Positions 28,765 to 64,000 are shown, counted from the stretch's first letter. The stretch: DNA of 64,000 nucleotides from Escherichia coli (GCF_011045215.1 NZ_CP049201.1); one strand, 5' to 3'. Notes: generated by a model from the letters alone, not told the origin. Program-made: numbers and translations.

Positions 28765-28948
28765 TTAAAAAATGAAATAAGACATTGTATCTGAAAGAAA
28801 AAACAGGATTTTGAGGCGCTTTTTTATACCGTTTCTCCGTGTTTTTAACTGCCTGATTTTATTGAAATCTTTTTTAGTTTTGCAGAAAGGATTTTTTGCT
28901 CGATCGTTTTAATTTTATACATTCCTGATAACGGAAATTTTTTTGCCG

Positions 28949-29061
28949 TTGACAGTTTTTGTTCTCCGGGGCTATATTCCTCACACAACCGCAAAATCGG
29001 TTGTCGGGATTGGCGTCCCGGATGTTTACGGAGCGATATAAGACGCGCCCGCGTCTTTTTT
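28949..29061 (+). ncRNA. Candidate small RNA: sigma70-like promoter, about 75-nt structured transcript, intrinsic terminator
   Basis: TTGACA 28949-28954, 18-bp spacer, TATATT 28973-28978; two internal hairpins (CAACCG..CGGTTG, CGGGA..TCCCG); terminator AGACGCG-CCC-GCGTCT + TTTTT at 29041-29061. Confidence 0.3.
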
Positions 29062-29224
29062 CATATCGTTTGCACAGTCACATTCGCGATTTATGGCGGG
29101 CTGTGTGGGGGAGCCGAAAGGCTCGCCGGTTTCCGTACCCGGTTACGCCAACCCTGCACAGTTCGCCACCAGTTCGATTGGCGTCGTCGGTGGCGATAAT
29201 TTCCAAATGTACGGAGTTATCGTT

Positions 29225-29788
29225 ATGACCACTCAGATTTCTGTCGAAACTCTTTCCCCGATTACACACAATCAAATTCCCGTTATCACTACCGAGTTGC
29301 TGGCGCAGCTTTATGGCACGGACTCAGATAACATCAAAAAGAATTATTCGCGCAACGCAGATCGCTTTTGTGAAGGTAAGCACTTTTACAAGGTGATTGG
29401 CGATGAACTAAAGAATTTGCGGGTGACTTTAAGTCACTCACAAAATCCCATCTCTCCCAAAACTCGCTCCCTCATCCTCTGGACAGAACGCGGCGCAGCC
29501 CGCCATGCCAAAATGCTCGAAACCGATCAGGCGTGGGAAGTGTTCGAAAAACTGGAAGACTGTTATTTCAGCCATAAACAACCACCAGCAACACAAAACT
29601 CCCCCACCCCAAATGATGGATGCGCATTACTGATCCACTTCGATAAACACGGGCAGGTCGAGTTCACGGAAAAAGTCCCCGCCGATGCGATGGTATGCAC
29701 TCTGGAACGGTTTAAATTTTATCTGGAGCAACATGGGTGGATCGTTGCCCGTAAAGAACAATTGGTAGAAAGGTTGATGCGGTTTTAA
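29225..29788 (+). CDS. ORF6N-domain (KilA-N-like) protein
   Basis: ORF track 29093..29788; start taken at MTTQISVETLSPITHNQIPVITTELLAQLYG (ATG 29225); motif typical of ORF6N/antirepressor-like family. Confidence 0.6.
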   Translation: MTTQISVETLSPITHNQIPVITTELLAQLYGTDSDNIKKNYSRNADRFCEGKHFYKVIGDELKNLRVTLSHSQNPISPKTRSLILWTERGAARHAKMLETDQAWEVFEKLEDCYFSHKQPPATQNSPTPNDGCALLIHFDKHGQVEFTEKVPADAMVCTLERFKFYLEQHGWIVARKEQLVERLMRF

Positions 29789-29794
29789 TGAATG

Positions 29795-29828
29795 CAAAAC
29801 CCCGGATGATCACCGGGGTTGATTTTAT
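29795..29828. terminator. Bidirectional terminator between ORF6N gene and tail fibre assembly gene
   Basis: AACCCCGG-ATGATCA-CCGGGGTT hairpin flanked by A/T runs. Confidence 0.5.
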
Positions 29829-30403
29829 CGAGGATGATTGCCGCTAATCGTCATCTCTCTGATTGAGAGTAAATCATCCAAGTTATTCAGCTCTTGCTTC
29901 ATCTCCCGCTGGCGGCGATAAATCTCGTCATTGCGATCGACCTGCGCCTGAACCATTGCAGTAAGCAGCTCATCCAGTTGTTGCATTGACAACTTTACCT
30001 GCTGATTTTCCGCATCGCGCCATACCATGGTTTTCCGTGCCGTGACTGATTTTGCTGATATCACCACCGGGTAAAGACGGGCCATCGAATCCGGTCCCCC
30101 GTTCCAGCTATGACCGTTCCATTCAAAAATGAATGGCTGCGCCTCCTGCTCTGTACGCCATGCTTCAATTTCCCGGCGTTTGGCTGCTTTTGCTGCTTCC
30201 AGCATCTCTGGCGTGACGGTGAACGGCGTTATTTCTCCCCACTTGCCGCTTTGCAGTTCCTGCCAGACTCGCTGCCCTGTCTCTGCTGTATCCGTGGCAG
30301 TTGCCGTATACGGAACCGGTTCATCCATGCCATCAAACAACACCCCGCAGTCAATCGCGCCATTTTCAAGATAACGCGCATTTTCGATGCGTTTTATTTC
30401 CAT
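29825..30403 (-). CDS. Putative tail fibre assembly chaperone (Tfa-like)
   Basis: ORF track 29825..30436, start at MEIKRIENARYLENG (ATG 30403); immediately downstream of a fibre gene. Confidence 0.55.
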   Translation of the reverse strand: MEIKRIENARYLENGAIDCGVLFDGMDEPVPYTATATDTAETGQRVWQELQSGKWGEITPFTVTPEMLEAAKAAKRREIEAWRTEQEAQPFIFEWNGHSWNGGPDSMARLYPVVISAKSVTARKTMVWRDAENQQVKLSMQQLDELLTAMVQAQVDRNDEIYRRQREMKQELNNLDDLLSIREMTISGNHPR

Positions 30404-30410
30404 AAAACAC

Positions 30411-31835
30411 CTACGCAATACGTATGAACAAACCAATCATGACACTGGCTGACCCGGCAGACCCGAGTTCATCGCCTGACAGTGCACGATATGACCCCGG
30501 CATACCACCACCAGAACCCCGCACATATACGGAAACGCTGCCGTTATATCCAACCCCGCTACCGGTCGTGCCGTAACACATAAATTCAACCGCACTCAGG
30601 CGTGACCCCGGATAACTGTAACCGCGCTTTATCCGGCGGTCGGTGTCTGCGTCTCCCTTACCGTTATAAGCCGCCAGTACAAGACTGCCTGCACCGTACC
30701 AGCCGTCCGTGGTACCGGGAGCAATACCGGACAGAAGAGAGATAATGTCCTGTGAGGTAATCTTCAGATTTTCCCAGCCAGTCAGATAACCATTACCTGT
30801 TGTCCAGTAGCGGCTGTAATAAACATCGCCATTGATACCGTAGAAAATAATGGCCTTTGGTGTATATCGCGGTTCCGGTGGATTATTGCGTGCCTCAACC
30901 CACCGGATGCTGACCACCCCGTTAAACAACACACCTCCGGATATGATTTTACTGCCACCCTCAACAAAATATTCACCCGGCGTCGCATTCCTTACCCATG
31001 CCAGAAAATCATCCTCTGTGTTAAAACGGATGCGTTCTGCGGGCAGAAAAATATGCCCAAAACCAAATGCGCCAGGTGTCGCCAGACGGCCTTCAGTCCG
31101 GTCGCGAATGTCGCTCTGTGGCGTCATTGTGGCTGCGCTTTTCAGTCCAAGATTATCACGGGATTCCTGCTGAGCCTCTTCACCTTCATCAGCCAGCTCT
31201 GATAAACGATTCGCCGTTTTCAGTGTCGCAGATAACGCGGTGTCAATATCCTCCCTGACATGCTCTGCATCAGATGCAGCCTGTTTAGCAGCTTCAGCGT
31301 CCTTTTTTACCTCCTCGGCGGCATTCTCAACCTGTGAGACCAGATTTTCGGCCTGTTGTTTACCCTCCGCAACCGCGTCGGCGTTCTGCTGAACACCTTC
31401 CGCCAGTTTTTTTACCTCTTCTTTTTCCCGAGCGGCAGCGTCTGCATGTTGCCCTGCCTGTCGTTCGCTTTCTGTTGCAGTTTCCGCGCTCTGCTGCGCC
31501 TGCGCCACCAGTTCTTCGAACCGCTTAACAACATCCGGCTTCAGGTCGCCTTCATCGAGGGCAGTCAGAAAGTCGTTCAGCGTGCCAGGCTTTGAGTCGT
31601 CGTAAACCGAAATATCACCGACACAGTATTCCCTTTCAATACACGACCGAAGATAAACGTCATATTTTCCGGTCTGAGCTTCAAAAGCATATTCTCCTGC
31701 CGGACCTGTCACCACTGTCGCCACCGTTCTCATGACCACTGCGGATGTATTCTGTCTGGCTTTCAGAATAATATGGTATCCGGACATGGGGAGTCCCGCG
31801 CCATCCGTCAGCACACCCGAAATTAATACAGACAT
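30411..31835 (-). CDS. Side tail fibre (Stf-like): prophage tail-fibre N-terminal domain, Ala/Glu-rich coiled region, distinct C-terminal domain
   Basis: N-terminus ISGVLTDGAGLPMSGYHIILKARQNTS...SVYDDSKPGTLNDFL resembles recalled StfR/StfE N-domain. Confidence 0.7.
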   Translation of the reverse strand: MSVLISGVLTDGAGLPMSGYHIILKARQNTSAVVMRTVATVVTGPAGEYAFEAQTGKYDVYLRSCIEREYCVGDISVYDDSKPGTLNDFLTALDEGDLKPDVVKRFEELVAQAQQSAETATESERQAGQHADAAAREKEEVKKLAEGVQQNADAVAEGKQQAENLVSQVENAAEEVKKDAEAAKQAASDAEHVREDIDTALSATLKTANRLSELADEGEEAQQESRDNLGLKSAATMTPQSDIRDRTEGRLATPGAFGFGHIFLPAERIRFNTEDDFLAWVRNATPGEYFVEGGSKIISGGVLFNGVVSIRWVEARNNPPEPRYTPKAIIFYGINGDVYYSRYWTTGNGYLTGWENLKITSQDIISLLSGIAPGTTDGWYGAGSLVLAAYNGKGDADTDRRIKRGYSYPGSRLSAVEFMCYGTTGSGVGYNGSVSVYVRGSGGGMPGSYRALSGDELGSAGSASVMIGLFIRIA

Positions 31836-31859: not shown

Positions 31860-32936
31860 TTAACCAAAATAATTGACGCCTTTTTTCTTGCCACTGGCTT
31901 TCCCCTTTGCAGAAATATCCGTGGCCAGCGACAGATTCAGCGAAAATCCCTGCACCGGTGACAACGAAAATTCCACTGACTCTGCCTGCCAGTTATGGTC
32001 CTCCCGTACCCCGAAGCCCCGTGTGATAAAGCGCACTTCCGCCCCCGCTTTCAGCAATACCGGTCGGCAGGGCAGCGTTATCGTCATCTGACGCCCCGCT
32101 TTCTGCACCCGCTTTACCTTCGACTGTGCACAATGTTCTGCCGTGCCCTGGTCTGGCTGGGTGAAGGGATGACGCTTGTCTGTGGACTCCACATCCACTT
32201 TAAGTTCACGCGTGCGACCATCAGACGGAGTAAAGTACCTGACACCAACCTTTCCCCCTTTTCCGCCTCCGGATGCCCCCTGCCGATCGCCCTCCCGGTA
32301 ATCCCAGTCTGACACCATATCCGGTGTGATAGTCATCACAGGGGCATCCCTGCCTCCGGTACTCTGCGACGCACCATACTCCAGAAATAACCAGTAACCG
32401 TTCGTCGGTTTACTGGTGGCACCGTACATCCCTGCAAGCCGGGAAAGCAGGGACGCATCCGACTCAGATGACTGCATCACCCACGGAATACGAATTTCCT
32501 CCAGTACCGGAGATACCCGCGCCACCAGATTATTTTCAGTGGCGATCGTTTTTACCAGGTCACCCAGCGTGACATCGCTGAAGGCGCGGGTTTTCAGTGC
32601 AGTCACATCTGCACCATGCCTGGACGCATTCATGGGGGCTGCGGTGGCATAAATGGTGATCCGGCGGGGAGGGCCACCGCTTGCCACCTGACAGACAGTA
32701 AAGCTACCCTTATTCACCAGACGTCCGTTAAACCCCAGCCCCAGCGTTAATACTGCGCCTTTCGGTGGCAATGCCAGCGTTTCACTGAACAGCGTTATCA
32801 TTAACTCATCAGCCCGCTTTGTGGCAGCACCATTATCGGTATAACGCAGTTCAGCCAGTCCGCGTTTTATTGCTTTCGTGATATCCTCGCCTTCCACCGT
32901 CAGACTGAAATCCGGCTGATATTCATTCAGTCCCAT
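31860..32936 (-). CDS. P2 gpD-like tail protein (late control D)
   Basis: 358-aa ORF downstream of U/X in a P2-like order. Confidence 0.75.
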   Translation of the reverse strand: MGLNEYQPDFSLTVEGEDITKAIKRGLAELRYTDNGAATKRADELMITLFSETLALPPKGAVLTLGLGFNGRLVNKGSFTVCQVASGGPPRRITIYATAAPMNASRHGADVTALKTRAFSDVTLGDLVKTIATENNLVARVSPVLEEIRIPWVMQSSESDASLLSRLAGMYGATSKPTNGYWLFLEYGASQSTGGRDAPVMTITPDMVSDWDYREGDRQGASGGGKGGKVGVRYFTPSDGRTRELKVDVESTDKRHPFTQPDQGTAEHCAQSKVKRVQKAGRQMTITLPCRPVLLKAGAEVRFITRGFGVREDHNWQAESVEFSLSPVQGFSLNLSLATDISAKGKASGKKKGVNYFG

Positions 32937-33145
32937 AACTGAAACGTCTCCTTCTCTTCCGGCTCATATGTCCAGTCCGGTAACACAATTTCCACCCCGG
33001 ACGGATACACCGGACCAAGGTCAGCCAGCCCGGGATTGGCTTCCAGTACCGCCGCCAGTGACTGGTTGAGCCCGGCGCTGCCGTAGTGTCTCTGACAGAT
33101 ATCATCCAGCATATCGCCGTCAGTGGTCCGCCAGTTTTTCGCCAT
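32927..33145 (-). CDS. P2 gpX-like tail protein (LysM-like)
   Basis: 72-aa ORF; DDICQRHYG...LEANPGLADLGPVYPSGVEIVLPD resembles recalled P2 X. Confidence 0.7.
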   Translation of the reverse strand: MAKNWRTTDGDMLDDICQRHYGSAGLNQSLAAVLEANPGLADLGPVYPSGVEIVLPDWTYEPEEKETFQLWD

Positions 33146-33614
33146 AGTATTTCAGCTCCAGTGTGAACGTTTTGTTTTTCGGCGCACCGCCGGGAAGAAA
33201 GGACGTGGTGTTATCTGAATAGGCGGTTACAACAAAATACCCCATCACATCCCCCGTCCCGGAAACCAGCAGATGCGGCGCAGGATTTTTATCCACCATC
33301 TGAACCAGCGTATCAAGGGCATCCATCCCCACACCGTCACGAAATCCCGCATGAACCATCCCTTCAAGGCTTATCGTTCTGGCCCCCTTACCGGTATACT
33401 GCAGCAGATCATTTTTTCCGATTAACTGCTGCTCATCCCATCGCCATTCCATGGTGCGCTTCATGGCGTTATACGCCGCTGAATCAATACTGAACTCAAA
33501 CTCACCAAACGACAGCATGACCCGCGAGGCCACATCGGTTAATGAACCAATCCTGTCCCATGCCCTGCGCTCAATCATGTTTGCGCCAAAGCCAACAAAA
33601 TCCACCATCATCAC
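33120..33614 (-). CDS. P2 gpU-like tail protein
   Basis: 164-aa ORF beginning MMMV, between tape measure and X. Confidence 0.65.
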   Translation of the reverse strand: MMMVDFVGFGANMIERRAWDRIGSLTDVASRVMLSFGEFEFSIDSAAYNAMKRTMEWRWDEQQLIGKNDLLQYTGKGARTISLEGMVHAGFRDGVGMDALDTLVQMVDKNPAPHLLVSGTGDVMGYFVVTAYSDNTTSFLPGGAPKNKTFTLELKYYGEKLADH

Positions 33615-35266: not shown

Positions 35267-35686
35267 AACGTCGCCGCCTCTCTTCCGATTCCTCCAGCAT
35301 CATTGACACAAAATCTGCATACGGCAGCGCCATCACATCTCCGGGAGACCACCCGAACCAGGCACCGGCGCGCCGTATCGCTGTCAGGATGCTGTCTTCT
35401 TCCGCCTGACCGGCGGCAGCAAAAAAACATTAAACTGCCGCTCCAGGGCCAGGTAATCACACGCTTCCATATTCATCATGTCCGCCGCATCCATTCCGCA
35501 CAGGCCGGCTATCATATCCAGATCGGCTTCTGCTTCCGGCTTGGTACTCCGGCGATGTAACAGACGATCGCGGACGGTGGGTGCACGCATGGTGACATGC
35601 GAGATTGTCTGACCTGACGCAGTGACATACGGCACGGATAACACAATCTCCACGCTGCTGCAGGGAATACTGTTTATCTCTGGCAT
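35247..35686 (-). CDS. Tail assembly chaperone E+E' fusion via putative -1 programmed frameshift
   Basis: Slippery site G-TTTTTTT-G at 35421-35427 (minus strand); the -1 frame stays open for 58 codons and ends at 35247, overlapping tape-measure start. Confidence 0.55.
35384..35686 (-). CDS. Tail assembly chaperone (P2 gpE-like)
   Basis: 100-aa ORF between tube and tape measure; contains slippery T7G run near its 3' end. Confidence 0.7.
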   Translation of the reverse strand: MPEINSIPCSSVEIVLSVPYVTASGQTISHVTMRAPTVRDRLLHRRSTKPEAEADLDMIAGLCGMDAADMMNMEACDYLALERQFNVFLLPPVRRKKTAS

Positions 35687-35746: not shown

Positions 35747-36265
35747 TCACACCCGGATAATTTTTTTCAGATCCGACAGCACATTCACACCGTTAATGCG
35801 CCGTACAAACTGCTCCGGAATAATGCAGATGGTCTCCAGTCCATCGACAGCCTGGCGGTAATAACTCAGTGACATTTCCACCGACACCGCTGCTTCTGCC
35901 TGCGAGGTGGACGGACGCGCATCCGGCGTGATACTGGTGATCATCCCCTGAAGGGTTTCCACCAGACCGCTTGTTGCACCGCCCACCTGATACGCCTGAC
36001 GGACAACAATTTCTGGCGAATAAATCCCTGCCTGCAATCCCAGCAGAGTCAGTATGGCCACGTCGTATCCGTAAATTTTAAACGAGCAGGTCAGCGCCTC
36101 CATACCGTCATCCACTGACACCGGCGCATCCATCGCACCGGTTTTGATGTCCACCTTCGTGATATTGATGGCCGGAGGCGTGTACTCATGTGCCCCCTGA
36201 AGGCGAATACCACCCGGCAGAAAGAGCGCCCATGCCCGTAGCAGTTTTTTTTCGCACGACATCAT
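35747..36265 (-). CDS. Tail tube protein (P2 FII-like)
   Basis: 172-aa ORF directly after sheath, ATGA overlap. Confidence 0.75.
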   Translation of the reverse strand: MMSCEKKLLRAWALFLPGGIRLQGAHEYTPPAINITKVDIKTGAMDAPVSVDDGMEALTCSFKIYGYDVAILTLLGLQAGIYSPEIVVRQAYQVGGATSGLVETLQGMITSITPDARPSTSQAEAAVSVEMSLSYYRQAVDGLETICIIPEQFVRRINGVNVLSDLKKIIRV

Positions 36266-37737
36266 ACTGTCAGTTCCTCCTGTGCCAGTTTATTGTTGAT
36301 CATTGTACGCAGCGTCAGGCGTTCCAGTGGTGACTTCGGCCCGAAGTCATAGTCGATATACAACTGCCCGGCAGCCAGGGTTTCTGCTGTATTCAGTTCG
36401 TCGTTCAGCCATGCGCTACCACCGTGGATCGCGCCCAGATTTTTAAGCTGGCGCATGTAGGCATTAATACTGCCGAGAATATCGTCCGCAACATCCCGAT
36501 CAATCGGACGGTCAACATAAGGCAACATGGATTCCTGAACACTGTCTTCAATCACATCAGCCGTACGGCGCACGGACTCAAAGCGCAACTGGCTATGAGA
36601 TGTGCACAGGCGGTTACCCCAGTGTTTAAAACCGTCATGACGAATAATGGTGGAGATGTTTTCCATGTTCAGCAGATTTGCCGTGCAGTTCTGCTCCCCG
36701 AGAATAAATGTATCCACCTGCTCAAGACCGGTGATATTCATCACGTCCTGATTTGATTTGGACCACCACCATCCTTTTTCATAATCAATACGGGCACGCA
36801 GTCCGGCAGCGCGTGCCGAATACGGGCGAAACACTGTTTGTCCGCTGTCATCCGTCACCGACACGCGCGGACGAAGCAGTTCAACACGCCCACCAAATAA
36901 CGTCCGGCGCTGAACCACATCCTGCGGCGTTACCATTGAGGGGGAGTCAATATAGGCAACAGCCCGCAGTTTCGCGGCATACGTTTCCAGCGCCTTTGCC
37001 ACACCATCATCCTCGCTGTAGCCAGTGGCGACAAGAATACGCGGCTGGTAGCCTGTTACGCCTTTGCTCTTCGTCAGAGCTTCCATGGCCTTAATCACTG
37101 CGGCACGCTGTTCTGCCTCCTTCGCTTTCGGTTTGCTTTCCGCACGTACCACAATCACCAGCGCACCGGTCTGGTCAAAAATATCACGCAGGGCAGGATA
37201 CAGCGTTCCGGAAGCCCCCAGCTTTCCGGCCTGCGTGAGTGCCCCCGCCACCACCACCGGCGTATTAACCGGAAATGCCTCATCCTCACCGCCGGACAAC
37301 GTCAGGGTAAAGGGAGATACCACTCCTTCCCCGACAGAATCTGCATTCAGCATGCTGGTATCGGCCATCACCGGTGAATCCTCCAGCGCATTCACAACCT
37401 CCTTCACACGTGACGCAGTGGCATTCGTCTCACCATGTTCATCTGTGCCCAGTGTGATCGTCAGGGTGTTTCCCTCCAGAGCCGCGGTTGTCTCTGCGTT
37501 TTGCTGCGTGCTTCCGTTGGCCACAACTGAAATCTCATTGCCGGACCGCCCGGCTTTTTTCGCTGTAAAATCCAGCGCGGAACTCAACAACCATGATCCG
37601 GCAGTACCGGAAGCACACACACCGCCGGAGGCGTCCGGCGCTGTCCCCACGAGGCCAATCACTGCCGTGGAGACGGTCTGCACGGCCACCGTGCCTGTCG
37701 TCAGTTCAATGGTTTCCACACCATGTAGTCCGGACAT
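36262..37737 (-). CDS. Tail sheath protein (P2 FI-like) with enlarged central region
   Basis: ORF track 36262..37824; start taken at MSGLHGVETIELTTGTVAVQTVSTAVIGLVGTAPDA (ATG 37737, RBS GGGAGAAA); C-terminus LYIDYDF..PLERLTLR resembles recalled P2 sheath. Confidence 0.8.
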   Translation of the reverse strand: MSGLHGVETIELTTGTVAVQTVSTAVIGLVGTAPDASGGVCASGTAGSWLLSSALDFTAKKAGRSGNEISVVANGSTQQNAETTAALEGNTLTITLGTDEHGETNATASRVKEVVNALEDSPVMADTSMLNADSVGEGVVSPFTLTLSGGEDEAFPVNTPVVVAGALTQAGKLGASGTLYPALRDIFDQTGALVIVVRAESKPKAKEAEQRAAVIKAMEALTKSKGVTGYQPRILVATGYSEDDGVAKALETYAAKLRAVAYIDSPSMVTPQDVVQRRTLFGGRVELLRPRVSVTDDSGQTVFRPYSARAAGLRARIDYEKGWWWSKSNQDVMNITGLEQVDTFILGEQNCTANLLNMENISTIIRHDGFKHWGNRLCTSHSQLRFESVRRTADVIEDSVQESMLPYVDRPIDRDVADDILGSINAYMRQLKNLGAIHGGSAWLNDELNTAETLAAGQLYIDYDFGPKSPLERLTLRTMINNKLAQEELTV

Positions 37738-44620: not shown

Positions 44621-44634
44621 AAATCACCACAAAA

Positions 44635-52080: not shown

Positions 52081-52086
52081 ATTGCC

Positions 52087-55388: not shown

Positions 55389-55438
55389 CACATTTCTCCC
55401 GTGCGATAAAGAAAAAGGCGGGAATATCCCGCCTGACC

Positions 55439-56467: not shown

Positions 56468-56537
56468 AATTGACTTTCCTTTAAAAACACAAACGAACCG
56501 CATCACGACCCGTTTTTTTCAGTTAATCACTTCACCA

Positions 56538-56873
56538 TCAGGCGTGGCTGATGGCACTTCCCACAAACGCGTTGGCTTTTTTCACCGCATCCACCGAATC
56601 CGGCCAGACCAGCGATTCGGTGGCAAACGTACCGCTTTTGTAGTACGTCAGTGTGGGCTCGGTCCCGGCCAGCGCCAGTGCCAGTACCCCCACAGCCGTT
56701 CCGGCTTTCTGACCATCCCATGCCACCAGTTTTCCGCTGGCGTCATCCAGCATCAGTGGCGTCAGTGAAGGCGTGGCAACACTGATACCGCTGGTACCTG
56801 TTGCGGTATACACCGGATCGCTTCCGGCAAAAATGCGCCCGTCCGCACGCTTTTCTGTGGTGGTTTTAATCAT
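56538..56873 (-). CDS. Head decoration protein (lambda gpD-like)
   Basis: ORF track 56538..56903; start taken at MIKTTTEKRADG (ATG 56873); TPLMLDDASGKLVAWDG...YYKSGTF...WPD matches recalled lambda D. Confidence 0.85.
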   Translation of the reverse strand: MIKTTTEKRADGRIFAGSDPVYTATGTSGISVATPSLTPLMLDDASGKLVAWDGQKAGTAVGVLALALAGTEPTLTYYKSGTFATESLVWPDSVDAVKKANAFVGSAISHA

Positions 56874-56913
56874 TTTCTCAGTCTCCTGATTTATCTGAAT
56901 CACGGATCCCCGC

Positions 56914-58395
56914 TTACGGCATACTCATCAGCAGTTCTTCTTCCCCGTTCCCGGCAGTTCCGCCACCGGAAACGGCACTGGCGGCATGCTGTGCCATGAA
57001 GCGCTCAAAAAGTGTTACCTGTGACGGTTGCGATACTGATGGCGCAGCTGCCAGCAGTGTTTTCGCCTGGTCCACTGTCATTCCCGGCTGTTCAGCCAGC
57101 GCCTGTGCCAGTTTTTCGCGTCCTTTTGCTTCCGGAAGTGCCATTATCTGCTCGCCGGTACTTGCCGCACCGGTTGCCGGTGCCGCTGCCAGTAACATTT
57201 TCGCCTGTTCCACCGTCATTCCCGGCTGTTCAGCCAGCGTCCGTGCCAGTTGTTCACGCCCTTTTGCTTCCGGAAGTGCCACAATCTGATCGCCAGTACT
57301 GTCAGTACCGGCAACCGGTGCCGCTGCCAGTAACGTTTTCGCCTGCTCAACTGACATTCCCTGCTGACCTGCCAGCATCTGCGCCAGTTTTTCGCGTCCT
57401 TTCGCCTCCTGACAATTCAGGATCCCCATCACGCGCTGATTTTCCTGGGACACCGCTTCAGCAACGGTGAGATTTTTTGTTGTCATCGTATTCTCCTGTG
57501 TAACAGAGTCGTTCAGAGCAGAAACCATTACATCAACGGCATCTGCAGCATTAATCAGTTGATCAGCCAGGCCTGTATCAATGCCTGCCTGACCGTCATA
57601 AACGGCAGCCTCGGTATTCATCACCACCTCTGAACTCAGCCCCGTATAAAGTGCCACCTTGTCGACAAACATCCGGCGGGCCTCATCAATACGGCGCTGA
57701 AAATCCGCACGCACACCTGTCGGCAACGCCTGAATACTGTTGCCGTCAACCTTGTGCTGCCCGGAGTAAATCAGCGTGATATCCACCCCTTCCTGTGCCA
57801 GTTGTTTCTCATAACTGATGTGCGCCATCATCACACCAATCGAACCAATTTTTGCCGTCTGCGTGACCAGCCGACGCGTACAGGCTGCCGCCAGCAACAT
57901 GGCGGCTGAACAGGCCATGTCATTACACAGCGCCCACACGGGCTTCTGTTCCCGCAGACGGTAAATCATGTCAGCACAGTCAAACGCCCCGGCAGCCTGA
58001 CCGCCAGGACTGTCGATATCCAGCAAAATACCGCGCACATCCGGATCATTCACCGCCAGCTGAAGACGGGCGGTAAGACCGTCATAGCCTGTCATGCCAG
58101 AGTAAGGCCTCAGGGTACCCATTTTATGTACCAGCGTGCCGCTCACCGGCAGAATGGCGATGCCATTTTTCACCTGATAGCATTTTTCAGGACGCCGGCC
58201 ACCAGACATATAGTCCGCCACCGCCAGTTGCATACCGTCGGCATCAAGCTGAACATCCAGTTGCGGAACGGAAAGACTGCCCGCCCCCATCTCCTTACCC
58301 AGCGCGCAAAAGAAAACCCGCGCATAGGCGGGTTCCAGTAAAAGCGGTTCATTAAATGCCATGGCGGCAATATGCGATAAATTACGACGCATCAC
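56914..58395 (-). CDS. Head maturation protease / scaffold (lambda gpC-like, S49 peptidase) with triplicated C-terminal repeat
   Basis: N-terminus ...NLSHIAAMAFNEPLLLEPAYARVFFCAL matches recalled lambda C; C-terminal region has three tandem copies of an ~46-aa unit. Confidence 0.85.
   Translation of the reverse strand: MMRRNLSHIAAMAFNEPLLLEPAYARVFFCALGKEMGAGSLSVPQLDVQLDADGMQLAVADYMSGGRRPEKCYQVKNGIAILPVSGTLVHKMGTLRPYSGMTGYDGLTARLQLAVNDPDVRGILLDIDSPGGQAAGAFDCADMIYRLREQKPVWALCNDMACSAAMLLAAACTRRLVTQTAKIGSIGVMMAHISYEKQLAQEGVDITLIYSGQHKVDGNSIQALPTGVRADFQRRIDEARRMFVDKVALYTGLSSEVVMNTEAAVYDGQAGIDTGLADQLINAADAVDVMVSALNDSVTQENTMTTKNLTVAEAVSQENQRVMGILNCQEAKGREKLAQMLAGQQGMSVEQAKTLLAAAPVAGTDSTGDQIVALPEAKGREQLARTLAEQPGMTVEQAKMLLAAAPATGAASTGEQIMALPEAKGREKLAQALAEQPGMTVDQAKTLLAAAPSVSQPSQVTLFERFMAQHAASAVSGGGTAGNGEEELLMSMP
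57040..57406. repeat. Tandem repeat, about 138 bp x 2.7, inside the gpC-like gene
   Basis: Protein units EAKGRE(K/Q)LA..LA.Q.GM(S/T)V(E/D)QAK.LLAAAP...STG.QI.ALP repeated; DNA motif ...GTGCCAGTTTTTCGCG..TTTTGCTTCCGGAAGTGCCA recurs at about 138-bp period. Confidence 0.7.
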
Positions 58396-59953
58396 CTTTT
58401 TCTCCCGTTGTCTGACGGATCTGCTGCTGAAACGCGTCCTTTATCCAGACCGGACGCGGAAGACCGGCAGCCTGTCGCTCCTGAGTTTCCCGTAGCTGCT
58501 GGCGGAAAATCTCCTGATAGTCATCCCCCATCAGGGCCAGCTCTTTCTCGTATGTACTCAGGCCGCCTTCAATGCGCATCACCGCTTCCTGCACTTCCTT
58601 AAGGCCATCAATCGCCATACGACCGGCACCAATCCACTCGGCACGGCACCACCCGGAACGGGCCTCCCAGAATGAGAAACGGGATTTCGGCGGACGGATC
58701 ACACCACGAATAAGGGCTTCCTCCAGCCAGCAGGCAAACATCTGTGACGCCAGGCGACTGGCCACAAATTTTCGTTTTCCCATAAAATACCGCCACGACT
58801 CATTGGCGGATGCCCTGGCACTGGAATAACTGACCTGTGAATAATCACGGGAAAGCTGCTCATAGGACACGCCCAGTCCGGCAGCTATGTAACGTAACAG
58901 CGCCTTTTCCAGTTCAGAAAAACCATTATCCGCATTCTGGGCTGTCTGCAGATTCAGTGAATCTCCCGGGTAAAGATGCGGAATACGGACCCCGCCCAGT
59001 TTTACCGTATTGGTGGCGTAATAACGCGCGTAGCCTTTCATGATGGTGTTCAGGGGATTTTTACCTCCATCTCCCACTCCGGCGATATATTCAAACGCTT
59101 TTTCCGAATCCAGTGTGGATTCAATCGTCGCGGCGTACATCGCCCGCACCACCGCCGACTGCAGTTGCGTGGCCTGCAGTGTGTCGAGCATCTTGAGACG
59201 CTCCATGACGGAATAAAACTGGTTGGCCCCGCGCGTCTGCCCGTCTTCCTGTGGCTGAAACACATGGATCATTCCCGGTCTCCCGGAAGGCAGTGTTGCC
59301 GTAATTCGTGTCCATTTACTGACACCGTAGCCGGGCCAGCCATCATCCTGAACATGGTAGGCCAGCGCTTTTCCGTGTCGGTTTATTTCCACCCCGGCAC
59401 GCATAAAACGATCGCCGGTACCATAACCGGGTGTACTGACACGCTTCGGGCTGATGGTTTTGAATTTCGTCCGGAATAATGACGTGGATTCCGCATCCCA
59501 TACGGGCTGGACAAAAATTTCACCGTTAAACGTATGGACCCCCACCCCTTCACGAATGAATTCGGTAAACGAACGACGTCCTTCCACATCCATCGTACCA
59601 AACACCGGATCGCAGTATTCCATCCACGCAGCCTCAACATCTTCAATAAAAGCATGTGAATCTGCTTCCGACATCCCCAGCCAGCGCCAGTTGGGACGGT
59701 AACTCAGACGAAACATGTGCCCGACAATATGATCCTTATGAATTTCCACTGCATTCGATGCAATACCGTTGTTACGGACCAGATCATCCGCGCGGGCGTT
59801 ACCCAGATGAATGGAAGGTAAGAGCGCCACGTCGGCACTTTCCGGTGCAGGCAGCCATTCTGCCATTTGCCCACCGAACCCGGAACCACCACCAGAATAT
59901 CCCATGCTTTGCCGTAAAGGCTGCCCATGAATATCCACCAGTTCCCCGTTCAC
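58382..59953 (-). CDS. Portal protein (lambda gpB-like)
   Basis: 523-aa ORF; GGGSGFGGQ, LPGDSLNLQTAQ.DNG, LLRYIAAGLGVSYEQLSR, GRMAIDGLKEVQEAVM match recalled lambda B. Confidence 0.9.
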   Translation of the reverse strand: MNGELVDIHGQPLRQSMGYSGGGSGFGGQMAEWLPAPESADVALLPSIHLGNARADDLVRNNGIASNAVEIHKDHIVGHMFRLSYRPNWRWLGMSEADSHAFIEDVEAAWMEYCDPVFGTMDVEGRRSFTEFIREGVGVHTFNGEIFVQPVWDAESTSLFRTKFKTISPKRVSTPGYGTGDRFMRAGVEINRHGKALAYHVQDDGWPGYGVSKWTRITATLPSGRPGMIHVFQPQEDGQTRGANQFYSVMERLKMLDTLQATQLQSAVVRAMYAATIESTLDSEKAFEYIAGVGDGGKNPLNTIMKGYARYYATNTVKLGGVRIPHLYPGDSLNLQTAQNADNGFSELEKALLRYIAAGLGVSYEQLSRDYSQVSYSSARASANESWRYFMGKRKFVASRLASQMFACWLEEALIRGVIRPPKSRFSFWEARSGWCRAEWIGAGRMAIDGLKEVQEAVMRIEGGLSTYEKELALMGDDYQEIFRQQLRETQERQAAGLPRPVWIKDAFQQQIRQTTGEKGDAS

Positions 59954-60159
59954 AGCCCCACTCCTGCCGGGCCACGACGCCGTCCGGATACACCCAGCGC
60001 ACTTTCCAGCTCTTCAATATACTGACGCAGTTCACCAATCGTCGCACGCGAATACTGAACCTGCCGTCCGTTCCTGCCGACAGAAACCACAGCACGCCCG
60101 ATCATCAGTTCATGTAATGCCCGACGCGCCTCGCAAAGCATTTCATGCGTATAAACCAT
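59950..60159 (-). CDS. Head-tail connector (lambda gpW-like)
   Basis: 69-aa ORF; ARRALHELMIGRAVVSV..GRQVQYSRATIGELRQYIEELE...RRRGPAG resembles recalled lambda W. Confidence 0.8.
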   Translation of the reverse strand: MVYTHEMLCEARRALHELMIGRAVVSVGRNGRQVQYSRATIGELRQYIEELESALGVSGRRRGPAGVGL

Positions 60160-60162: not shown

Positions 60163-62079
60163 TTATCCTCCACTCAGTGCAGCCGCGATCTCTTCCATGC
60201 TCATATCATCCTCATCCTGCTCATCTCTTCGTGCCCTCGCCAGCGCTTCAAGGTCCAGTTGCCACCGCTGTACCGAAACGCGCAGGGCGGCATAAGCATA
60301 TACCAGGCAGTCGAGGGCTTCGTTGCGTCGCCCTTTTTTATCCCACAGCAGTTTCACCCTGCCGTTAACCACCTTTTCCACCAGTTCTTCCGCTACGATT
60401 TGACGCGCCTCTTCTTCCGAAAAAATGTCCGGGTTATCCGGAAAACGGAAGGTATACGGGGCTGCTTCACTTGCAGAAACCACCGGCAGGGCAAAACGCG
60501 CATACAGCATTTCCTTGACGGTATCGGAGCCCACCTCACACAAAAACACACCACGCTGGTTGCGCTTTTTGGGCATGGTGATCACCGGCTTGCCATACAC
60601 CGATGCCCCTTTTATGGGAAGCACAAAAAAAGTGCCGTGTTTCCTGGAACGCTGATACACAATGTCCTGGTCGATACCACCGGTATCCCAGCAGACGCGG
60701 GAAATGGAAATTTCAGTACCGTCAGCATGGCGGTATTTTTTCCGGATCACCGCATCAACACGTTTAAGGGTGTCCTCGTCCTCCGGTCGCCCCATGATAA
60801 TTTGCTTGTCAATCAGAAAGGCTTCTTCGCCGGGAGCCCAGCCCCAGACATAAATTTCATAGCGATCTTTCTGGGAGTCGATCCCGGCAGTCAGGTAAAC
60901 CACCCGCAGGGGAACCTGCGCATCATAGTGGCAGACTTTTTCCAGCAACAACTCAAAGCTCAGTTTTTCTGCCACGGCCTCTTCATAGGGCTCCCCGAGC
61001 GTGGTGTTAATAAACGTCTTGACACCGTTCGGATCCTTCAGCGCATCCAGCCAGTCATAAACAATCTGTACCCAGGTGGTGAACGGACTGTACGCTGTCC
61101 ACACGTGGTACGTGATTGAGCGCGGTGGCGGCATCTCCTCATCACCGGCGCTGTAAAATGCCAGGCCGTCACGCGTCCACATCCCGGTATTGTCACAAAT
61201 CCAGCGCCCGTCGGTCTGGTCAAGCTCCGACTGCCGGATCACACAGCCATTATGTTCACACAGGTAATACACCGTTTCCGGTTTACCCTTCTCCCATTTC
61301 AGGCCAAAGGTTGTCGCATCATCGCCAAACTTAAGATACTGGGCTTCACCACAATGAGGGCATGGCACATAAAACCGCATAAAATGTGCAGATTCGTTCG
61401 CGGCTTTTTCAATCTGACAGGAACCTTTAATTTTTGGCGTTGAGCCGCGTATGGATTTAGGCCATACCGAACCTTCGATACGTTTATCGCCAAGCAGCGT
61501 TGGCGAGCCTTCCTTTTCCACATCCGGTTCAAACGAGGAGAGTTCGTCATAGCAGACCACATCCACTGATTTTTCACGGTAGTTTTTAGCAGCGGCACCC
61601 CCCAGGCACCAGAACCCCACGCCGGAGGAGAAACGCTTCAGGGTGAGTGTGTTGTCACGATGTTTTCTGCCCAGCCATGGCGATAACGCTTTAAGGCTGG
61701 GGACATCCCGGAGCGTTGCTTCCACATGCGCTTTCATAAAATCTTCAGCTGCGGAATCTGTCGGCTGGAAGAGCAGGCTGTTACGGGATTTATGCTCAAT
61801 AAAATACCCGACCACGCCCAGCAGCATTTTGGTGTAACCCACACGCGCCGATTTAATCAGATTAACAGTGCGGATCCTGTCGTGCCCCATGCTGTTCATA
61901 ATGGCGACCTGGAACGGCAGTGTTTTCCATTCCCCATCACCGTATGACGATTCTTTAGGCAGATAATAATTTTGATCAGCCCATTCAACTGCCGTCATCG
62001 GTACAACCCTGACCAGAGGCTGCAGCGCAACTGAAACAGCAGCCATCATATTATTCAGCTGTAGTTCGGATATATTCAT
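60163..62079 (-). CDS. Terminase large subunit (lambda gpA-like)
   Basis: ORF track 60163..62115; start taken at MNISELQ (ATG 62079); extensive match to recalled lambda A (TAVEWAD.NYYLPKES, KRIEGSVWPKSIRGSTPK, WTAYSPFTTWVQIV). Confidence 0.95.
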   Translation of the reverse strand: MNISELQLNNMMAAVSVALQPLVRVVPMTAVEWADQNYYLPKESSYGDGEWKTLPFQVAIMNSMGHDRIRTVNLIKSARVGYTKMLLGVVGYFIEHKSRNSLLFQPTDSAAEDFMKAHVEATLRDVPSLKALSPWLGRKHRDNTLTLKRFSSGVGFWCLGGAAAKNYREKSVDVVCYDELSSFEPDVEKEGSPTLLGDKRIEGSVWPKSIRGSTPKIKGSCQIEKAANESAHFMRFYVPCPHCGEAQYLKFGDDATTFGLKWEKGKPETVYYLCEHNGCVIRQSELDQTDGRWICDNTGMWTRDGLAFYSAGDEEMPPPRSITYHVWTAYSPFTTWVQIVYDWLDALKDPNGVKTFINTTLGEPYEEAVAEKLSFELLLEKVCHYDAQVPLRVVYLTAGIDSQKDRYEIYVWGWAPGEEAFLIDKQIIMGRPEDEDTLKRVDAVIRKKYRHADGTEISISRVCWDTGGIDQDIVYQRSRKHGTFFVLPIKGASVYGKPVITMPKKRNQRGVFLCEVGSDTVKEMLYARFALPVVSASEAAPYTFRFPDNPDIFSEEEARQIVAEELVEKVVNGRVKLLWDKKGRRNEALDCLVYAYAALRVSVQRWQLDLEALARARRDEQDEDDMSMEEIAAALSGG

Positions 62080-62560
62080 CGAGTAACTCCGGCAATTTAT
62101 CCCCTGTCCGCGCACACTGATTCGCGCCTTTTGCGATAAGGGTTTTCAGATAATCGATATGACGCGGGGTTAAATCCGGGAACTGTCGCTGCATGGATAA
62201 AGGAATGGAATCAAGCGTACTGGACAATGCCATCGCCAGTTTGCTGAGAGCGAAAACGCAGAACCCAGAATCAATGAGCTTGCCTTCGGTTACCTGATTT
62301 TTTAATTGCTGTGCTATTGCCTGTTCTTCAGTCAATTTCCATCTGGCGATAAGTAATTTTTCTTCGTAATCGCTATTTCCATCGTCATCAGTATCGCTTC
62401 TTCCTTTGCGTTTAAGGTATGAAATATAAAAATATCGCCAGGCATCAATATCGTATTCACCACGCTTTCGATTTTTTGGCGCTCCCGGGTGCTTCTGAAG
62501 ATCCCGCAACCAGCGTTCAGTTATACCAAGATGCTCGGCTACCTCCGCCTGCGTTGCCAT
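62051..62560 (-). CDS. Terminase small subunit (Nu1-like, prophage copy)
   Basis: 169-aa ORF upstream of terL; C-terminal half similar to the element TerS; N-terminal domain distinct. Confidence 0.8.
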   Translation of the reverse strand: MATQAEVAEHLGITERWLRDLQKHPGAPKNRKRGEYDIDAWRYFYISYLKRKGRSDTDDDGNSDYEEKLLIARWKLTEEQAIAQQLKNQVTEGKLIDSGFCVFALSKLAMALSSTLDSIPLSMQRQFPDLTPRHIDYLKTLIAKGANQCARTGDKLPELLDEYIRTTAE

Positions 62561-62699
62561 ACACCCTCTTTAGCTGTTCACTTTACACTCAACTCCGTTT
62601 TTGCCGCTATTTTCCCACAAACTGGTCGGACTTCCGGTTTTCTTGATAACTAAAAACAATATAATCAATTGGTTAGATAATTAAAAAACCGGAAGTGGA

Positions 62700-62776
62700 A
62701 CTCGAAAAATTTTCATAAATAGCGCGTTTTTGCGCGTCCTACGACCCCCGGTGTTTCAGATTCCGGAAAGGACCCG
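62700..62776. other. Lambda-like cos site of the prophage
   Basis: CTCGAAAAATTTTCATAAATAGCGCG ... GCGCGTCCTACGACCCCCGG ... GGAAAGGACCCG; reverse complement parallels the lambda cos junction; about 180 bp upstream of Nu1-like gene. Confidence 0.65.
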
Positions 62777-63421
62777 CGCAAATGAGAGCATTTATCATTA
62801 ACATTTACAGATAAGATGACGTACATCATTGCAACGCCATTCAGCCATATACCTGTGGCATTCGTTGTTGCACTCCGTAACCCTGCGACTAAAGTTGAAA
62901 GCATGGCCATCTTTTGCCACCGGCAAATCTTCAATGGATTTCCCCTGCCGGTTTTTTATTTTCGTCGATGCATAACATTGCATTTACATCAATACCGTCT
63001 ATTGTCATAAGTATGTTGTACCGATGCTCGGGTGATATTGGCGGTCTTCGCCAGCCGGTTCTGTGTAGCTGCTCCCTGTGACCGGTTTTTTATTTCTCAC
63101 ATTATCGCAGCCCCTCACTGAAGGGCTGCTGTAATGCCTGTTACTCACAAATCAAACGAACATGCTGACCACTCATTTCAATGCGTAAGTATTGTGGCTT
63201 GCCGTCAATCAACGCGGTGATTAACTTGTCACCTGTAGGTTTCCACATAATTTTCTCCTGTTTTAATGCCCCTTGCCGCCGGGCAGTTGATCAAAGTTCA
63301 TCTTGATTCGACAAGATTTAGAATGAATAAGATAAAATTGGCACAAGCAGCAGAATTTCATGCTTTCTGGACGCTGGCGCACCCTTCATTTTTCAGCAAA
63401 ATATTCTGCTCTTACAGGCGA

Positions 63422-63646
63422 TCAGTTCTGCATACACTGCCGAACACCGTCGACAATTTCACAGACCTGAGAAGCTGTATCGAAAAGCTGGCGCGCCTTA
63501 TCCAGGCTGACGCACCCCACCAATAAAAAAGGCACCAGTATCGCTACCAGTGCCCATTTCGCCGCCGTTCGCGGCATTCTGTGTGTCCAGTGTTTTCGGC
63601 TCATGTCACCACCACCTGACCGCACTAACCAACTGTGCAATACCAT
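63422..63646 (-). CDS. Putative small lipoprotein
   Basis: Hydrophobic leader ending in lipobox-like LLVGC; start uncertain; function unknown. Confidence 0.35.
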   Translation of the reverse strand: MVLHSWLVRSGGGDMSRKHWTHRMPRTAAKWALVAILVPFLLVGCVSLDKARQLFDTASQVCEIVDGVRQCMQN

Positions 63647-63821
63647 ACAAACACAAGCAAAACGCTCCAGCCTTGATTAACCAGGCGGTAGCTACACTGA
63701 TTTCGCTCGTCACCGGAGCTTTCAGTTCAGGGCCGTTTTTCATTGTCAACCTCAGCAGTATTCTTTTATACTTTCCCACGAGGATTTTTTCCGTATTCAC
63801 TGAGCACAATTTCCTTTTCAT
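63606..63821 (-). CDS. Hypothetical small protein with C-terminal hydrophobic segment
   Basis: 71-aa ORF overlapping the lipoprotein ORF in another frame. Confidence 0.3.
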   Translation of the reverse strand: MKRKLCSVNTEKILVGKYKRILLRLTMKNGPELKAPVTSEISVATAWLIKAGAFCLCLYGIAQLVSAVRWW

Positions 63822-63838
63822 CGCGTGATAACTAAAAA

Positions 63839-63875
63839 CCCCGGACTGTTCCAGCAGCCGGGGTTTTATTTTTTT
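63839..63875. terminator. Bidirectional hairpin terminator
   Basis: CCCCGG..CCGGGG stem with flanking A-run and T-run, immediately after the stop of the partial gene at the window end. Confidence 0.5.
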
Positions 63876-64000
63876 ATTTACTGGTATGAGTGCGGCATCG
63901 GGCTATTTCATTCCGGGCCTTACTGTCACCGCGACAGATGCAACGCACCGTATCGCCGTTCAGTGTGGTAATGTAAGCCTCATCCTCTTTTTCTACCGGA
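63874..64000 (-). CDS. 3' end of a gene continuing beyond the window (Cys-rich C-terminus)
   Basis: Minus-strand frame ...VEKEDEAYITTLNGDTVRCICRGDSKARNEIARCRTHTSK-stop; start outside window. Confidence 0.3.
   Translation of the reverse strand, partial: PVEKEDEAYITTLNGDTVRCICRGDSKARNEIARCRTHTSK

Follow-up and report, generated by a model that had tools for sequence, protein, structure and literature searches.

A probable phage-inducible chromosomal island nested in the predicted tail-terminator gene of an Escherichia coli prophage

Is the long run of phage structural genes that begins near position 28,765 of a 64,000-nucleotide stretch of Escherichia coli DNA (GCF_011045215.1, NZ_CP049201.1; this whole stretch is called the window below) the late operon of one phage, or does it hold two elements, one inside the other? 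A preliminary description had presented the stretch up to position 64,000 as a mosaic prophage in which a lambda-type head and packaging module is joined to a P2-type contractile tail. The mosaic is genuine and occurs in uninterrupted form in E. coli C5 and TUM9812. In the window, no lysis cassette separates the two modules, as had been stated, but they are not joined, since 11.15 kb of foreign DNA (42349-53489) intervenes. By treating the 35 kb as a single continuous structural operon, the description had missed an embedded satellite, which is apparent from a duplicate set of capsid, decoration and small terminase subunit (TerS) genes and from an interrupted tail gene. We conclude that the region very probably comprises a lambdoid helper prophage integrated in ompW and, inside the predicted tail-terminator gene of this helper, a satellite of the phage-inducible chromosomal island (PICI) type whose integrase falls outside the published clade of helper-embedded PICIs (HE-PICIs).

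Foreign DNA within the predicted tail-terminator gene

Relative to the C5 genome, the 11.15 kb form a clean insertion between the tail gene V and the neck genes. Window positions 41000-42348 aligned to C5 at 99.8% identity and positions 53490-56000 at 98.9%, the two C5 segments being contiguous with a 12-bp overlap. The window carries GTTCAAAAGAGA at one junction (42337-42348) and GTCCAAAAGAGA at the other (53490-53501), and C5 holds a single GTTCAAAAGAGA. As read from these junctions, the satellite integrase has recombined the attP overlap CTCTTTTG with the same sequence at about codon 130 of the interrupted gene. The assigned genes of the satellite are co-oriented with that gene, and its GC content is 46.8% as compared to 53.0% for the helper late genes. 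The same junction between satellite and terminator gene, at 98.5-98.7% identity, was observed in two unrelated strains, SA53-3 and CFIAFB20180511.

In both C5 and TUM9812 the target is an intact 552-bp gene (183 aa) located between the neck gene and V and overlapping the start of V. The window copy is cut after codon 130 and the satellite supplies no replacement 3' end: the 5' part of the gene runs on into 19 foreign codons in an open reading frame (ORF) spanning 53434-53898. The orphan 3' end, now 11 kb away, corresponds to a 59-aa protein (P0141; positions 26360-26539 of the SA53-3 locus L001) that is publicly annotated as an independent 'hypothetical protein', and its annotation as a separate gene is an artefact of the satellite insertion.

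The split gene belongs to no Pfam, NCBIfam or named PHROG family and displayed no BLASTP similarity to P2 R or S. Homologues were collected, 73 of them were aligned, and the structure of the intact protein was predicted with AlphaFold2 (predicted local distance difference test score, pLDDT, of 91; predicted template modelling score, pTM, of 0.77). A Foldseek search of the Protein Data Bank with this model returned the pyocin R2 collar (E = 4e-7) and the phage Mu terminator (E = 8e-7), followed by many chains of the lambda gpU tail terminator, T5 p142 and other tail terminators. Because these matches are tail terminators, we predict that the split 183-aa gene encodes the tail terminator of the helper, the cognate of lambda U and P2 R. 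The cut falls within a predicted beta-strand and removes three further secondary-structure elements, for which reason the function of the modelled protein has likely been lost.

A single continuous mosaic phage genome, in which the 11 kb would represent duplicated head genes, morons or an internal replication module, might be argued from the co-orientation of all genes and from the capsid, decoration and TerS proteins, which are of the same families as those of the helper. It is contradicted by the precise absence of the 11 kb from C5 and TUM9812, where the split gene is an intact ORF, and by about 74 further genomes in which the terminator gene has no adjoining integrase (the gene of this prophage type was found in about 76 of 5,426 complete E. 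coli genomes). In addition, the stretch is bounded by direct repeats beside an integrase, contains a cos of its own, is poorer in GC and has relatives that occupy unrelated sites in the chromosome. We therefore hold a continuous genome to be very improbable.

Two or three decayed remnants lying side by side (a lambda-like head, an integrase-bearing piece and a P2-like tail), with no working helper-satellite pair, would be another way to account for the region. Many helpers of the HE-PICIs described by Tommasini, Mageeney and Williams in 2023 look truncated (PMC10111431), the C5 copy is itself truncated beside a Mu-like element, and the early region of the present prophage is outside the window. 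However, the C5 and TUM9812 prophages, which are of the same helper type (98-99.8% identity to C5, same gene order), have head, neck and tail genes contiguous in one overlapping operon. The TUM9812 helper, with its terminator gene intact, also carries upstream a complete lambdoid early region (Q, RusA, replisome organiser, repressor-like genes, dicB and recE). The region contains neither head genes of P2 type nor tail genes of lambda type, the split gene is the only visible structural ORF that is not open, and the recurrence of the junction in two unrelated strains argues in the same direction. This explanation appears to us improbable, and we return to the satellite embedded in its helper, the features of which are collected in Table 1.

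Table 1. Features of the window, numbered from its first nucleotide.
Feature	Position	Strand	Basis and remarks
ompW 3' remnant, last 40 codons	28639-28761	-	ORF translation; partial OmpW gene at this position in SA53-3 annotation
Prophage-end module: c4-a1b1, isrK and C4 antisense RNAs in tandem	28972-29788	+	Rfam gathering-score matches
Rha/antirepressor gene	29093-29788	+	Ash and Rha annotations in SA53-3; 79% nucleotide identity to Stx-phage ant gene
DUF4376 chaperone-like gene, partner of second fibre	29825-30436	-	RefSeq annotation of SA53-3 homologue
Second tail-fibre gene ('prophage tail fiber N-terminal domain')	30411-31835	-	Downstream of gpD; RefSeq annotation of SA53-3 homologue
Tail D	31860-32936	-	PHROGs; BLASTP to P2, 38%
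Tail X	32927-33145	-	PHROGs; BLASTP to P2, 48%
Tail U	33120-33614	-	PHROGs; BLASTP to P2, 32%
Tail T, tape measure, 551 aa	33611-35266	-	Position, PHROG matches
Tail E	35384-35686	-	Position, PHROG matches, frameshift signal; E' by -1 frameshift at 35427-35420
Tube (FII)	35747-36265	-	PHROGs; BLASTP to P2, 23%
Sheath (FI)	36262-37737	-	PHROGs; BLASTP to P2, 37%
Tail G	37793-38338	-	PHROGs; BLASTP to P2, 35%
Tail H	38341-39714	-	PHROGs; BLASTP to P2, 50%
Tail I	39718-40299	-	PHROGs; BLASTP to P2, 34%
Tail J	40292-41206	-	PHROGs; BLASTP to P2, 41%
Tail W	41181-41537	-	PHROGs; BLASTP to P2, 38%
Tail V	41572-42195	-	PHROGs; BLASTP to P2, 28%
Predicted terminator, 3' fragment, last 53 codons	42179-42348	-	Overlaps V start; 99.8% to C5 gene, mapped from C5 locus (L002) 28826-28995
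att core, satellite distal end	42340-42348		CAAAAGAGA; 11/12 matches over 42337-42348; against C5 empty site
Satellite element, ~11.15 kb	42349-53489	-	Clean insertion relative to C5; gene content; GC
Satellite Nu1-type TerS, 194 aa	43311-43895	-	phrog_57; 38% identity to helper Nu1
Satellite cos	44039-44114	-	cosQ-like GGGTCCTTTCC, cosN-like core, CTATTTATGAAAATTTTT
Satellite Nu3/scaffold-like protein, 141 aa	44195-44620	-	C-terminal part of head-protease profiles; 34% to helper C residues 365-490
Satellite gpD-type decoration protein	44635-44964	-	PHROGs; 36% identity to helper D
Satellite lambda gpE-type major capsid protein	44975-46030	-	PHROGs; 46% identity to helper E
Replication zone	46495-49078	-	PHROGs; RefSeq annotation of SA53-3 homologue
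SSB	46495-46917	-	PHROGs
phrog_1231 protein	46914-47165	-	PHROGs
RepA/AAA_25-type primase-helicase-like protein	47367-48782	-	PHROGs
DUF4222 protein	48779-49078	-	PHROGs
Bro zone	49246-51820	-	PHROGs; NCBIfam
Icd-like/repressor-like small ORFs	49493-49753; C-terminal part of 49743-50387	-	PHROGs; NCBIfam Icd-like match
176-aa ORF, Bro zone	50293-50823	+	Opposite strand to rest of satellite
Bro-N antirepressor-like gene	51239-51820	-	PHROGs
AlpA/excisionase-like helix-turn-helix protein, 69 aa	51871-52080	-	phrog_66; Pfam Phage_AlpA weak, E = 6e-4
Tyrosine integrase, 410 aa	52087-53319	-	Pfam Arm-DNA-bind_3, Phage_int_M, Phage_integrase
Predicted terminator, 5' fragment, first 130 codons	53490-53883	-	C5 comparison
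att core, integrase end	53493-53501		CAAAAGAGA; against C5 empty site
Neck1/tail-completion gene	53895-54617	-	PHROGs
Head FII-type head closure	54598-55005	-	PHROGs
Head FI	55002-55520	-	PHROGs
Head E, gpE-type capsid	55439-56506	-	PHROGs
Head D, gpD-type decoration	56538-56903	-	PHROGs
Head C, gpC protease/scaffold	56914-58395	-	PHROGs
Head B, portal	58382-59953	-	PHROGs
Head W, gpW-type adaptor	59950-60159	-	PHROGs
Head A, gpA-type TerL	60163-62115	-	PHROGs
Helper Nu1-type TerS	62051-62560	-	PHROGs
Helper cos	62701-62776	-	Upstream of Nu1

Gene content and kinship of the satellite

In SA53-3, the closest relative, the RefSeq annotation of the same interval lists an integrase, a helix-turn-helix protein, Bro-N and Icd-like proteins, a DUF4222 protein, a RepA-family helicase and a single-stranded DNA-binding protein (SSB), together with a second gene each for a major capsid protein, a head decoration protein and a small terminase, and the PHROG scans of the window agree. 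No portal, protease, large terminase (TerL), tail or lysis gene was found in the satellite by PHROG, Pfam and NCBIfam scans or in the SA53-3 annotation. At 11.15 kb (Gram-negative PICIs measure approximately 10-15 kb), with an integrase gene, alpA, primase/replication genes, a cos similar to that of the helper and neither tail nor lysis genes, the satellite has the features of a Gram-negative PICI. Many E. coli genomes carry PICI-like islands in the chromosome that share parts of it, with extensive similarity. The satellite cos resembles that of lambda and is identical to the helper cos at 60 of 76 positions, including the lambda cosQ-like and cosN-flanking segments, the cosB side being unrelated. 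When satellite TerS is compared to helper Nu1, the C-terminal half is best conserved, a half which in lambda is the TerL-binding region (PMC6739421).

The 176-aa ORF of the Bro zone had no match in PHROGs, NCBIfam, PADLOC or Pfam; it is followed by two terminator-like hairpins (50923-51073) and could be an accessory or immunity gene of that zone. PADLOC recognised no known defence gene among the ORFs of the satellite that lack an assignment, and no C4/isrK-type immunity RNA was found in the satellite with Rfam at gathering or relaxed thresholds, the one sub-threshold match being at chance level.

HE-PICIs are exemplified by Eco567.11capE, which resides in the lambda-like prophage 50icd. A further 491 are spread over 14 sites, all within cognates of lambda late genes, nine in number (A, B, C, E, H, J, L, T and V), and their integrases form a single clade, with a doubled TGTATTGC motif flanking attP (PMC10111431). 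Like them, the window satellite is embedded in its helper, splits a late gene, carries co-oriented int, alpA and primase genes and an attP without replacement sequence, and is ordered in Integration, Bro, Replication and Late zones (all on the minus strand, with a weak AlpA assignment). Further points in common are a lambda E-type capsid gene of its own, a decoration gene and a cos like that of the helper. Between its capsid protein and that of the catalogued HE-PICI Eco6058.11.E_Phage_cap_E_80 (L004), identity amounts to 57%.

Unlike them, the window satellite carries an integrase with 27% identity (92 bits) to the 11capE-type integrase of that same HE-PICI, the published cut-off for discovery having been 400 bits to the founder 11capE integrase (PMC10111431). 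In HE-PICIs the doubled attP motif tgTGTATTGCantgTGTATTGCa, i.e. TGTATTGC(N4)TGTATTGC, flanks the core at distances of about 81 bp upstream and 132 bp downstream (PMC10111431); it had no match in the window with up to 3 mismatches allowed. The core CAAAAGAGA is neither in the portion of the HE-PICI site list that was covered nor in the att files, and its arms are not in the attL/attR files. The target, a predicted tail terminator (U cognate), is outside the nine genes and 14 sites, the helper bears a contractile P2-type tail, and the satellite encodes a full-length Nu1-type TerS, 11capE being described without terS. Helper-embedded satellites are a kind known since 2022-23, and the present one varies it by a different integrase lineage, a new target gene and another tail type of the helper.

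The Gram-negative cos PICI EcCICFT073 (Fillol-Salom et al. 2018 and 2019; PMC6092414, PMC6739421) resembles the window satellite in having int, AlpA and primase/replication genes, homologues of capsid and decoration proteins, a cos that is lambda-like except for a divergent cosB, and helpers of the lambdoid kind. It differs in being located at a chromosomal site. EcCICFT073 redirects packaging with Rpp, a short mimic of the TerS DNA-binding part that heterodimerises with phage TerS (PMC6739421), whereas the window satellite, inside its helper, has a complete TerS of 194 aa in which the TerL-binding half is conserved. Scans that used no Rpp profile revealed no separate Rpp in it.

Assignment to another known family, either the capsid-forming PICIs (cf-PICIs) or the P4-like elements, could be proposed from the capsid, decoration, scaffold-like and TerS genes, which are partly as in cf-PICIs, and from the integrase, which has a P4-type domain architecture and 32% identity (198 bits) to the P4 integrase. 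However, cf-PICIs encode every protein needed for their own capsids, according to the cf-PICI preprint, and the satellite has only those four, with no match to a portal, protease or TerL. No gene was assigned to the sid-, psu-, delta- or alpha-type families in PHROG scans, in which the P4 proteins themselves were not compared, and the helper head is lambda-type instead of the P2-type head that goes with P4-like satellites. Either affiliation is highly unlikely. The cf-PICI and P4-like readings were rejected on these points, and that of two adjacent prophages on the points given in the preceding section.

A PICI-type satellite embedded in this helper suggests the following cycle. With the satellite in place, the helper would make no functional terminator and could not finish its tails. 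Upon induction, replication of the helper would copy the satellite passively, in line with the published HE-PICI model in which the composite excises and replicates first and the satellite excises afterwards (PMC10111431). Q-antiterminated late transcription coming from the head genes, and able to pass the terminator-like hairpins that a terminator scan placed after alpA (51863-51845) and after the scaffold gene (44181-44157), would express int and alpA and lead to excision. Excision would restore the terminator gene (predicted junction TTCCGTGTCTCTTTTGAACAGGAC), so that completion of helper tails would be delayed until the satellite is gone. The freed circle (predicted attP junction GCTTTCTCTTTTGGACTATGC; TTTGCTTTCTCTTTTGGACTATGC) would replicate from its own primase-helicase and SSB. 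Its TerS, with a diverged DNA-binding half and a conserved TerL-binding half, would direct the gpA-type TerL of the helper to the satellite cos. Finally, on the portal and protease of the helper, the gpE-, gpD- and Nu3-like proteins of the satellite may form shells or change their size, and tails of the helper would then be attached to these.

The part given to the shell genes is the least secure point of this scheme. The same element might instead be packaged as a concatemer of about four units (4 x 11.15 = 44.6 kb) in helper-sized heads, the shell genes serving for interference or being dispensable. A length of 44.6 kb is within the packaging limits of lambda-type cos phages. Deletion of the capsid or decoration gene of EcCICFT073 did not relieve interference (PMC6092414), and an HE-PICI capsid knockout was tolerated (PMC10111431). 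On the other hand, the capsid homologue of SaPIbov5 makes small capsids and PmCI172 lysates contain small heads, the link to the capsid homologue being probable in the latter case (PMC6092414), and the conservation of a scaffold-like gene beside the capsid and decoration genes suggests a role in assembly. We regard packaging as concatemers as possible but rather unlikely, and retain the building or re-sizing of shells by the satellite proteins in the scheme.

Several points weigh against the reading of the region as a helper with an embedded PICI-type satellite, the EcCICFT073 deletions just cited among them. Excision, replication, packaging and interference by the satellite are all activities that we infer from its genes and sites. 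The AlpA assignment is weak, and the hairpins after alpA and after the scaffold gene are strong, which makes read-through dependent on antitermination. The published HE-PICI study recovered no virions from its own composite (PMC10111431). The window stops at 64000, inside the prophage, and the early region of the helper lies beyond. Finally, few genomes have this exact integrase (4 of the 5,426 complete ones of E. coli), and among its more distant relatives, considered below, truncation of the upstream late gene was verified except for P0022, P0050 and P0080.

The integrase lineage and its targets

When the 5,426 complete E. coli genomes were searched for the satellite integrase, it was found in SA53-3, CFIAFB20180511, TUM9812 and AREA_492. 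In TUM9812 and AREA_492 the integrase is 94.6% identical, with 22 substitutions clustered at residues 144-240 and 289-328, and its satellite, a relative of the one in the window, interrupts the gpA-type TerL gene at the FHIW motif, leaving both parts of gpA visible. The attP arms are conserved between the two types and the 8-bp overlap differs, reading GCTTT-CTCTTTTG-GACTATGC for the terminator and GCTTT-CA[CT]ATCTG-GACTATGC for gpA. A search of the window's gpA gene for the gpA-type attB CATATCTGGAC and its 27-bp context gave no match. Judging from these alignments, the lineage may have exchanged one target for the other, gpA or the terminator gene, through 22 amino-acid substitutions alone.

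Each attP arm holds one copy of the 9-mer GGACTAGAA, at about -80 and about +150 of the core (window ~42428 and ~53340, minus strand), and the related GGACTATGC abuts the att core. The downstream copy (GGGACTAGAA) is conserved in distant clade members (L007, L008, L012 and L013). These positions resemble those of the published HE-PICI motif (-81 and +132), the sequence being different. We consider GGACTAGAA a candidate arm-type integrase site, a single 9-mer repeat being by itself near chance expectation.

A total of 120 integrase homologues were retrieved, none of which exceeded 119 bits against the 11capE-type integrase. Genomic context was sampled for eleven more distant homologue clusters (42-89% identity), a small and non-systematic sample. 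In the clusters at 89, 71, 70, 65 and 59% identity (Salmonella, Enterobacter, Klebsiella, Buttiauxella and Salmonella, respectively), the integrase gene lies directly downstream of a gpA gene truncated at about 330-375 residues, and at the Enterobacter and Buttiauxella loci FH[IV]WSA are the last residues of what is left of gpA. In another cluster at 59% (E. coli), the integrase gene comes after a DUF1441-type TerS gene and an uncalled gap of 1.1 kb. The 50-51% clusters were located after a 96-residue Terminase_1-like TerL fragment, a 153-residue capsid (PF09950) fragment or Pa193_gp24, and the 42-43% clusters either at a Phage_portal_2 3' end (Yersinia) or behind a DUF4055 portal gene, a Mu_F gene and DUF6651. 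In every sampled relative the integrase gene is directly downstream of a late gene, co-oriented with it and followed by PICI-type genes.

The lineage looks separate from the published HE-PICI clade, from which pairwise bit scores and identity set it apart. Its sampled members, 42-99.5% identical, come from Escherichia, Salmonella, Klebsiella, Enterobacter, Buttiauxella, Raoultella and Yersinia, and their targets include gpA, a Terminase_1-type TerL gene, a major capsid gene, a portal gene and the predicted tail terminator. On balance we lean slightly towards the view that they form a second clade of P4-type tyrosine integrases, of independent origin and wide taxonomic range, which habitually targets prophage late genes, the helper-embedded lifestyle then being convergent and commoner than supposed.

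Some distant members of this clade (a viral operational taxonomic unit contig, L019, and the loci L013/L014 and L021) are embedded in the head genes of another phage type (Phage_portal_3 or DUF4055, Mu_F, Pa193_gp24 and PF09950 capsid). In some of the distant-member satellites a second, faint Phage_integrase-like ORF of about 290 aa is present in the Bro zone.

The helper prophage and the meaning of its interruption

Positions 1 to about 28.6 kb of the window are E. coli core chromosome (acnA ... trpEDCBA, yciGFE), with 95-99% identity to essentially every complete E. coli genome. The ompW remnant is the chromosomal end of the composite prophage, which is integrated in this gene; the last ompW codons end at 28761, and the left boundary that had been placed near 28765 was correct, the right one (64000) being simply the end of the window. 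From 28761 onwards the window is prophage DNA throughout, with nearly all genes, and all late genes, on the minus strand. Upstream of the prophage, two chromosomal RNA elements were recognised, an STnc180 small RNA (7595-7797, minus strand) and the trp operon leader (20236-20329, plus strand).

The helper virion would combine a lambda-type head and packaging module, fused via two neck genes, with a P2-type contractile tail. The head module (53.4-62.6 kb) has the lambda gene order Nu1-A-W-B-C(Nu3)-D-E-FI-FII and a cos upstream of Nu1; the similarity and order announced in the preliminary description were confirmed by PHROG matches and by about 75% nucleotide identity to lambda, phage 21 and relatives. 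Delimited more narrowly than in Table 1, the FII-like, FI, E and D genes run over 54598-55002, 55002-55388, 55439-56467 and 56538-56873, respectively. Within gpC, the Nu3/scaffold-like C-terminal part contains a 138-bp (46-aa) tandem repeat present in 2.5 copies (57060-57409, minus strand; 83% match), to whose units the 141-aa scaffold-like protein of the satellite aligns. The gpC genes of C5 and SA53-3 are 135 bp longer than that of the window, which suggests that the repeat varies in copy number.

The tail module (29.8-42.3 kb) shares 23-50% amino-acid identity with P2. Its order is that of P2 for V-W-J-I-H-G and sheath (FI)-tube (FII)-E/E'-T-U-D, as had been claimed, but X does not fit, since it stands between U and D and belongs in P2 to the L-X-Y-K operon. 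Eleven of the tail proteins find their P2 namesake by BLASTP, and the claimed resemblance did not extend to E and T, for which BLASTP against the P2 reference proteins gave no match. A P2-like slippery run, TTTTTTTG, is located near the 3' end of E (35427-35420), and the -1 frame reaches the start of T, as in P2 E/E'. The sheath has 491 residues as compared to 396 in P2, and the 551-aa tape-measure ORF was verified, P2 gpT having 815 residues. A tail shorter than that of P2 is a reasonable prediction from this protein; P2 tails are about 135 nm long, and a simple proportion (551/815) would plausibly give roughly 90 nm.

At the nucleotide level, the resemblance to sequenced phages holds for the head block and fails for the tail half, where megablast against phage genomes returned only tail-fibre and ant matches and no close sequenced relative. 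The nearest sequenced phage sheaths in a protein search were those of Hafnia phage yong2 and Citrobacter phage Chris1 (61-62% identity). Chris1 resembles the helper in its lambdoid early genes, its gpA and gpB homologues and its contractile tail, and differs from it in a ClpP-capsid fusion head and in the tail order V-sheath-tube...D-W-J-I-H; yong2 is related to the helper as far as the sheath match tells. None of C5, TUM9812, Chris1 and yong2 (for the latter, on the sheath match only) has a satellite at the terminator gene, TUM9812 carrying the related one in gpA. The C5 copy abuts another tail module and a Mu-type prophage (Mu transposase, AAA ATPase; L002 1-17900 and 41000-46995), and not all copies of this prophage type are intact.

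The helper is like P2 in its tail and yet is not a peduovirus: its head is lambda-type, with none of the P2-type head genes Q, P, O, N, M and L, and it lacks P2 lysis and replication genes and has an extra pair of distal fibre genes. We found nothing specific to this prophage type in the literature on lambda-like heads and P2-like tails. The lambda-head/P2-tail mosaic is real, yet it is an ordinary, recurrent and already sequenced prophage type, and it fits the well-known modular exchange among lambdoid phages.

The second fibre pair is additional to the P2-type H/G pair and has about 80% nucleotide identity to the tail-fibre genes of phiP27; the length of the fibre varies, being 474 aa in the window and 667 aa in SA53-3. 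At the distal end of the helper, adjoining the ompW junction, the c4-a1b1, isrK and C4 RNAs lie directly upstream of the Rha/antirepressor gene and overlap it. This end looks like a P1/P7-style C4-Ant immunity module, an accessory region of the lambdoid prophage, and its Ant protein gave weak PADLOC PDC-S05 matches.

For annotation, the consequence is that an apparent long structural operon is a prophage with a parasite inside. The nested satellite accounts for the duplicate set of capsid, decoration and TerS genes, for the 59-aa orphan ORF termed 'hypothetical' and for the apparent lack of a tail terminator. Helper-embedded satellites had been tied to one integrase clade and found through similarity to one founder (PMC10111431), with siphovirus-type lambda cognate genes as targets. 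In the present case an unrelated integrase serves that strategy, the lambdoid helper is myovirus-tailed and the gene entered is the predicted tail terminator; disruption of this gene should prevent the final step of tail assembly for as long as the satellite stays in place. The pair formed by the gpA-site and terminator-site integrases may offer a tractable system for studying how tyrosine integrases are retargeted and how their specificity evolves. If the tropism holds across the clade, late-gene targeting would be a recurrent evolutionary solution, and prophage late operons would merit routine screening for nested satellites.

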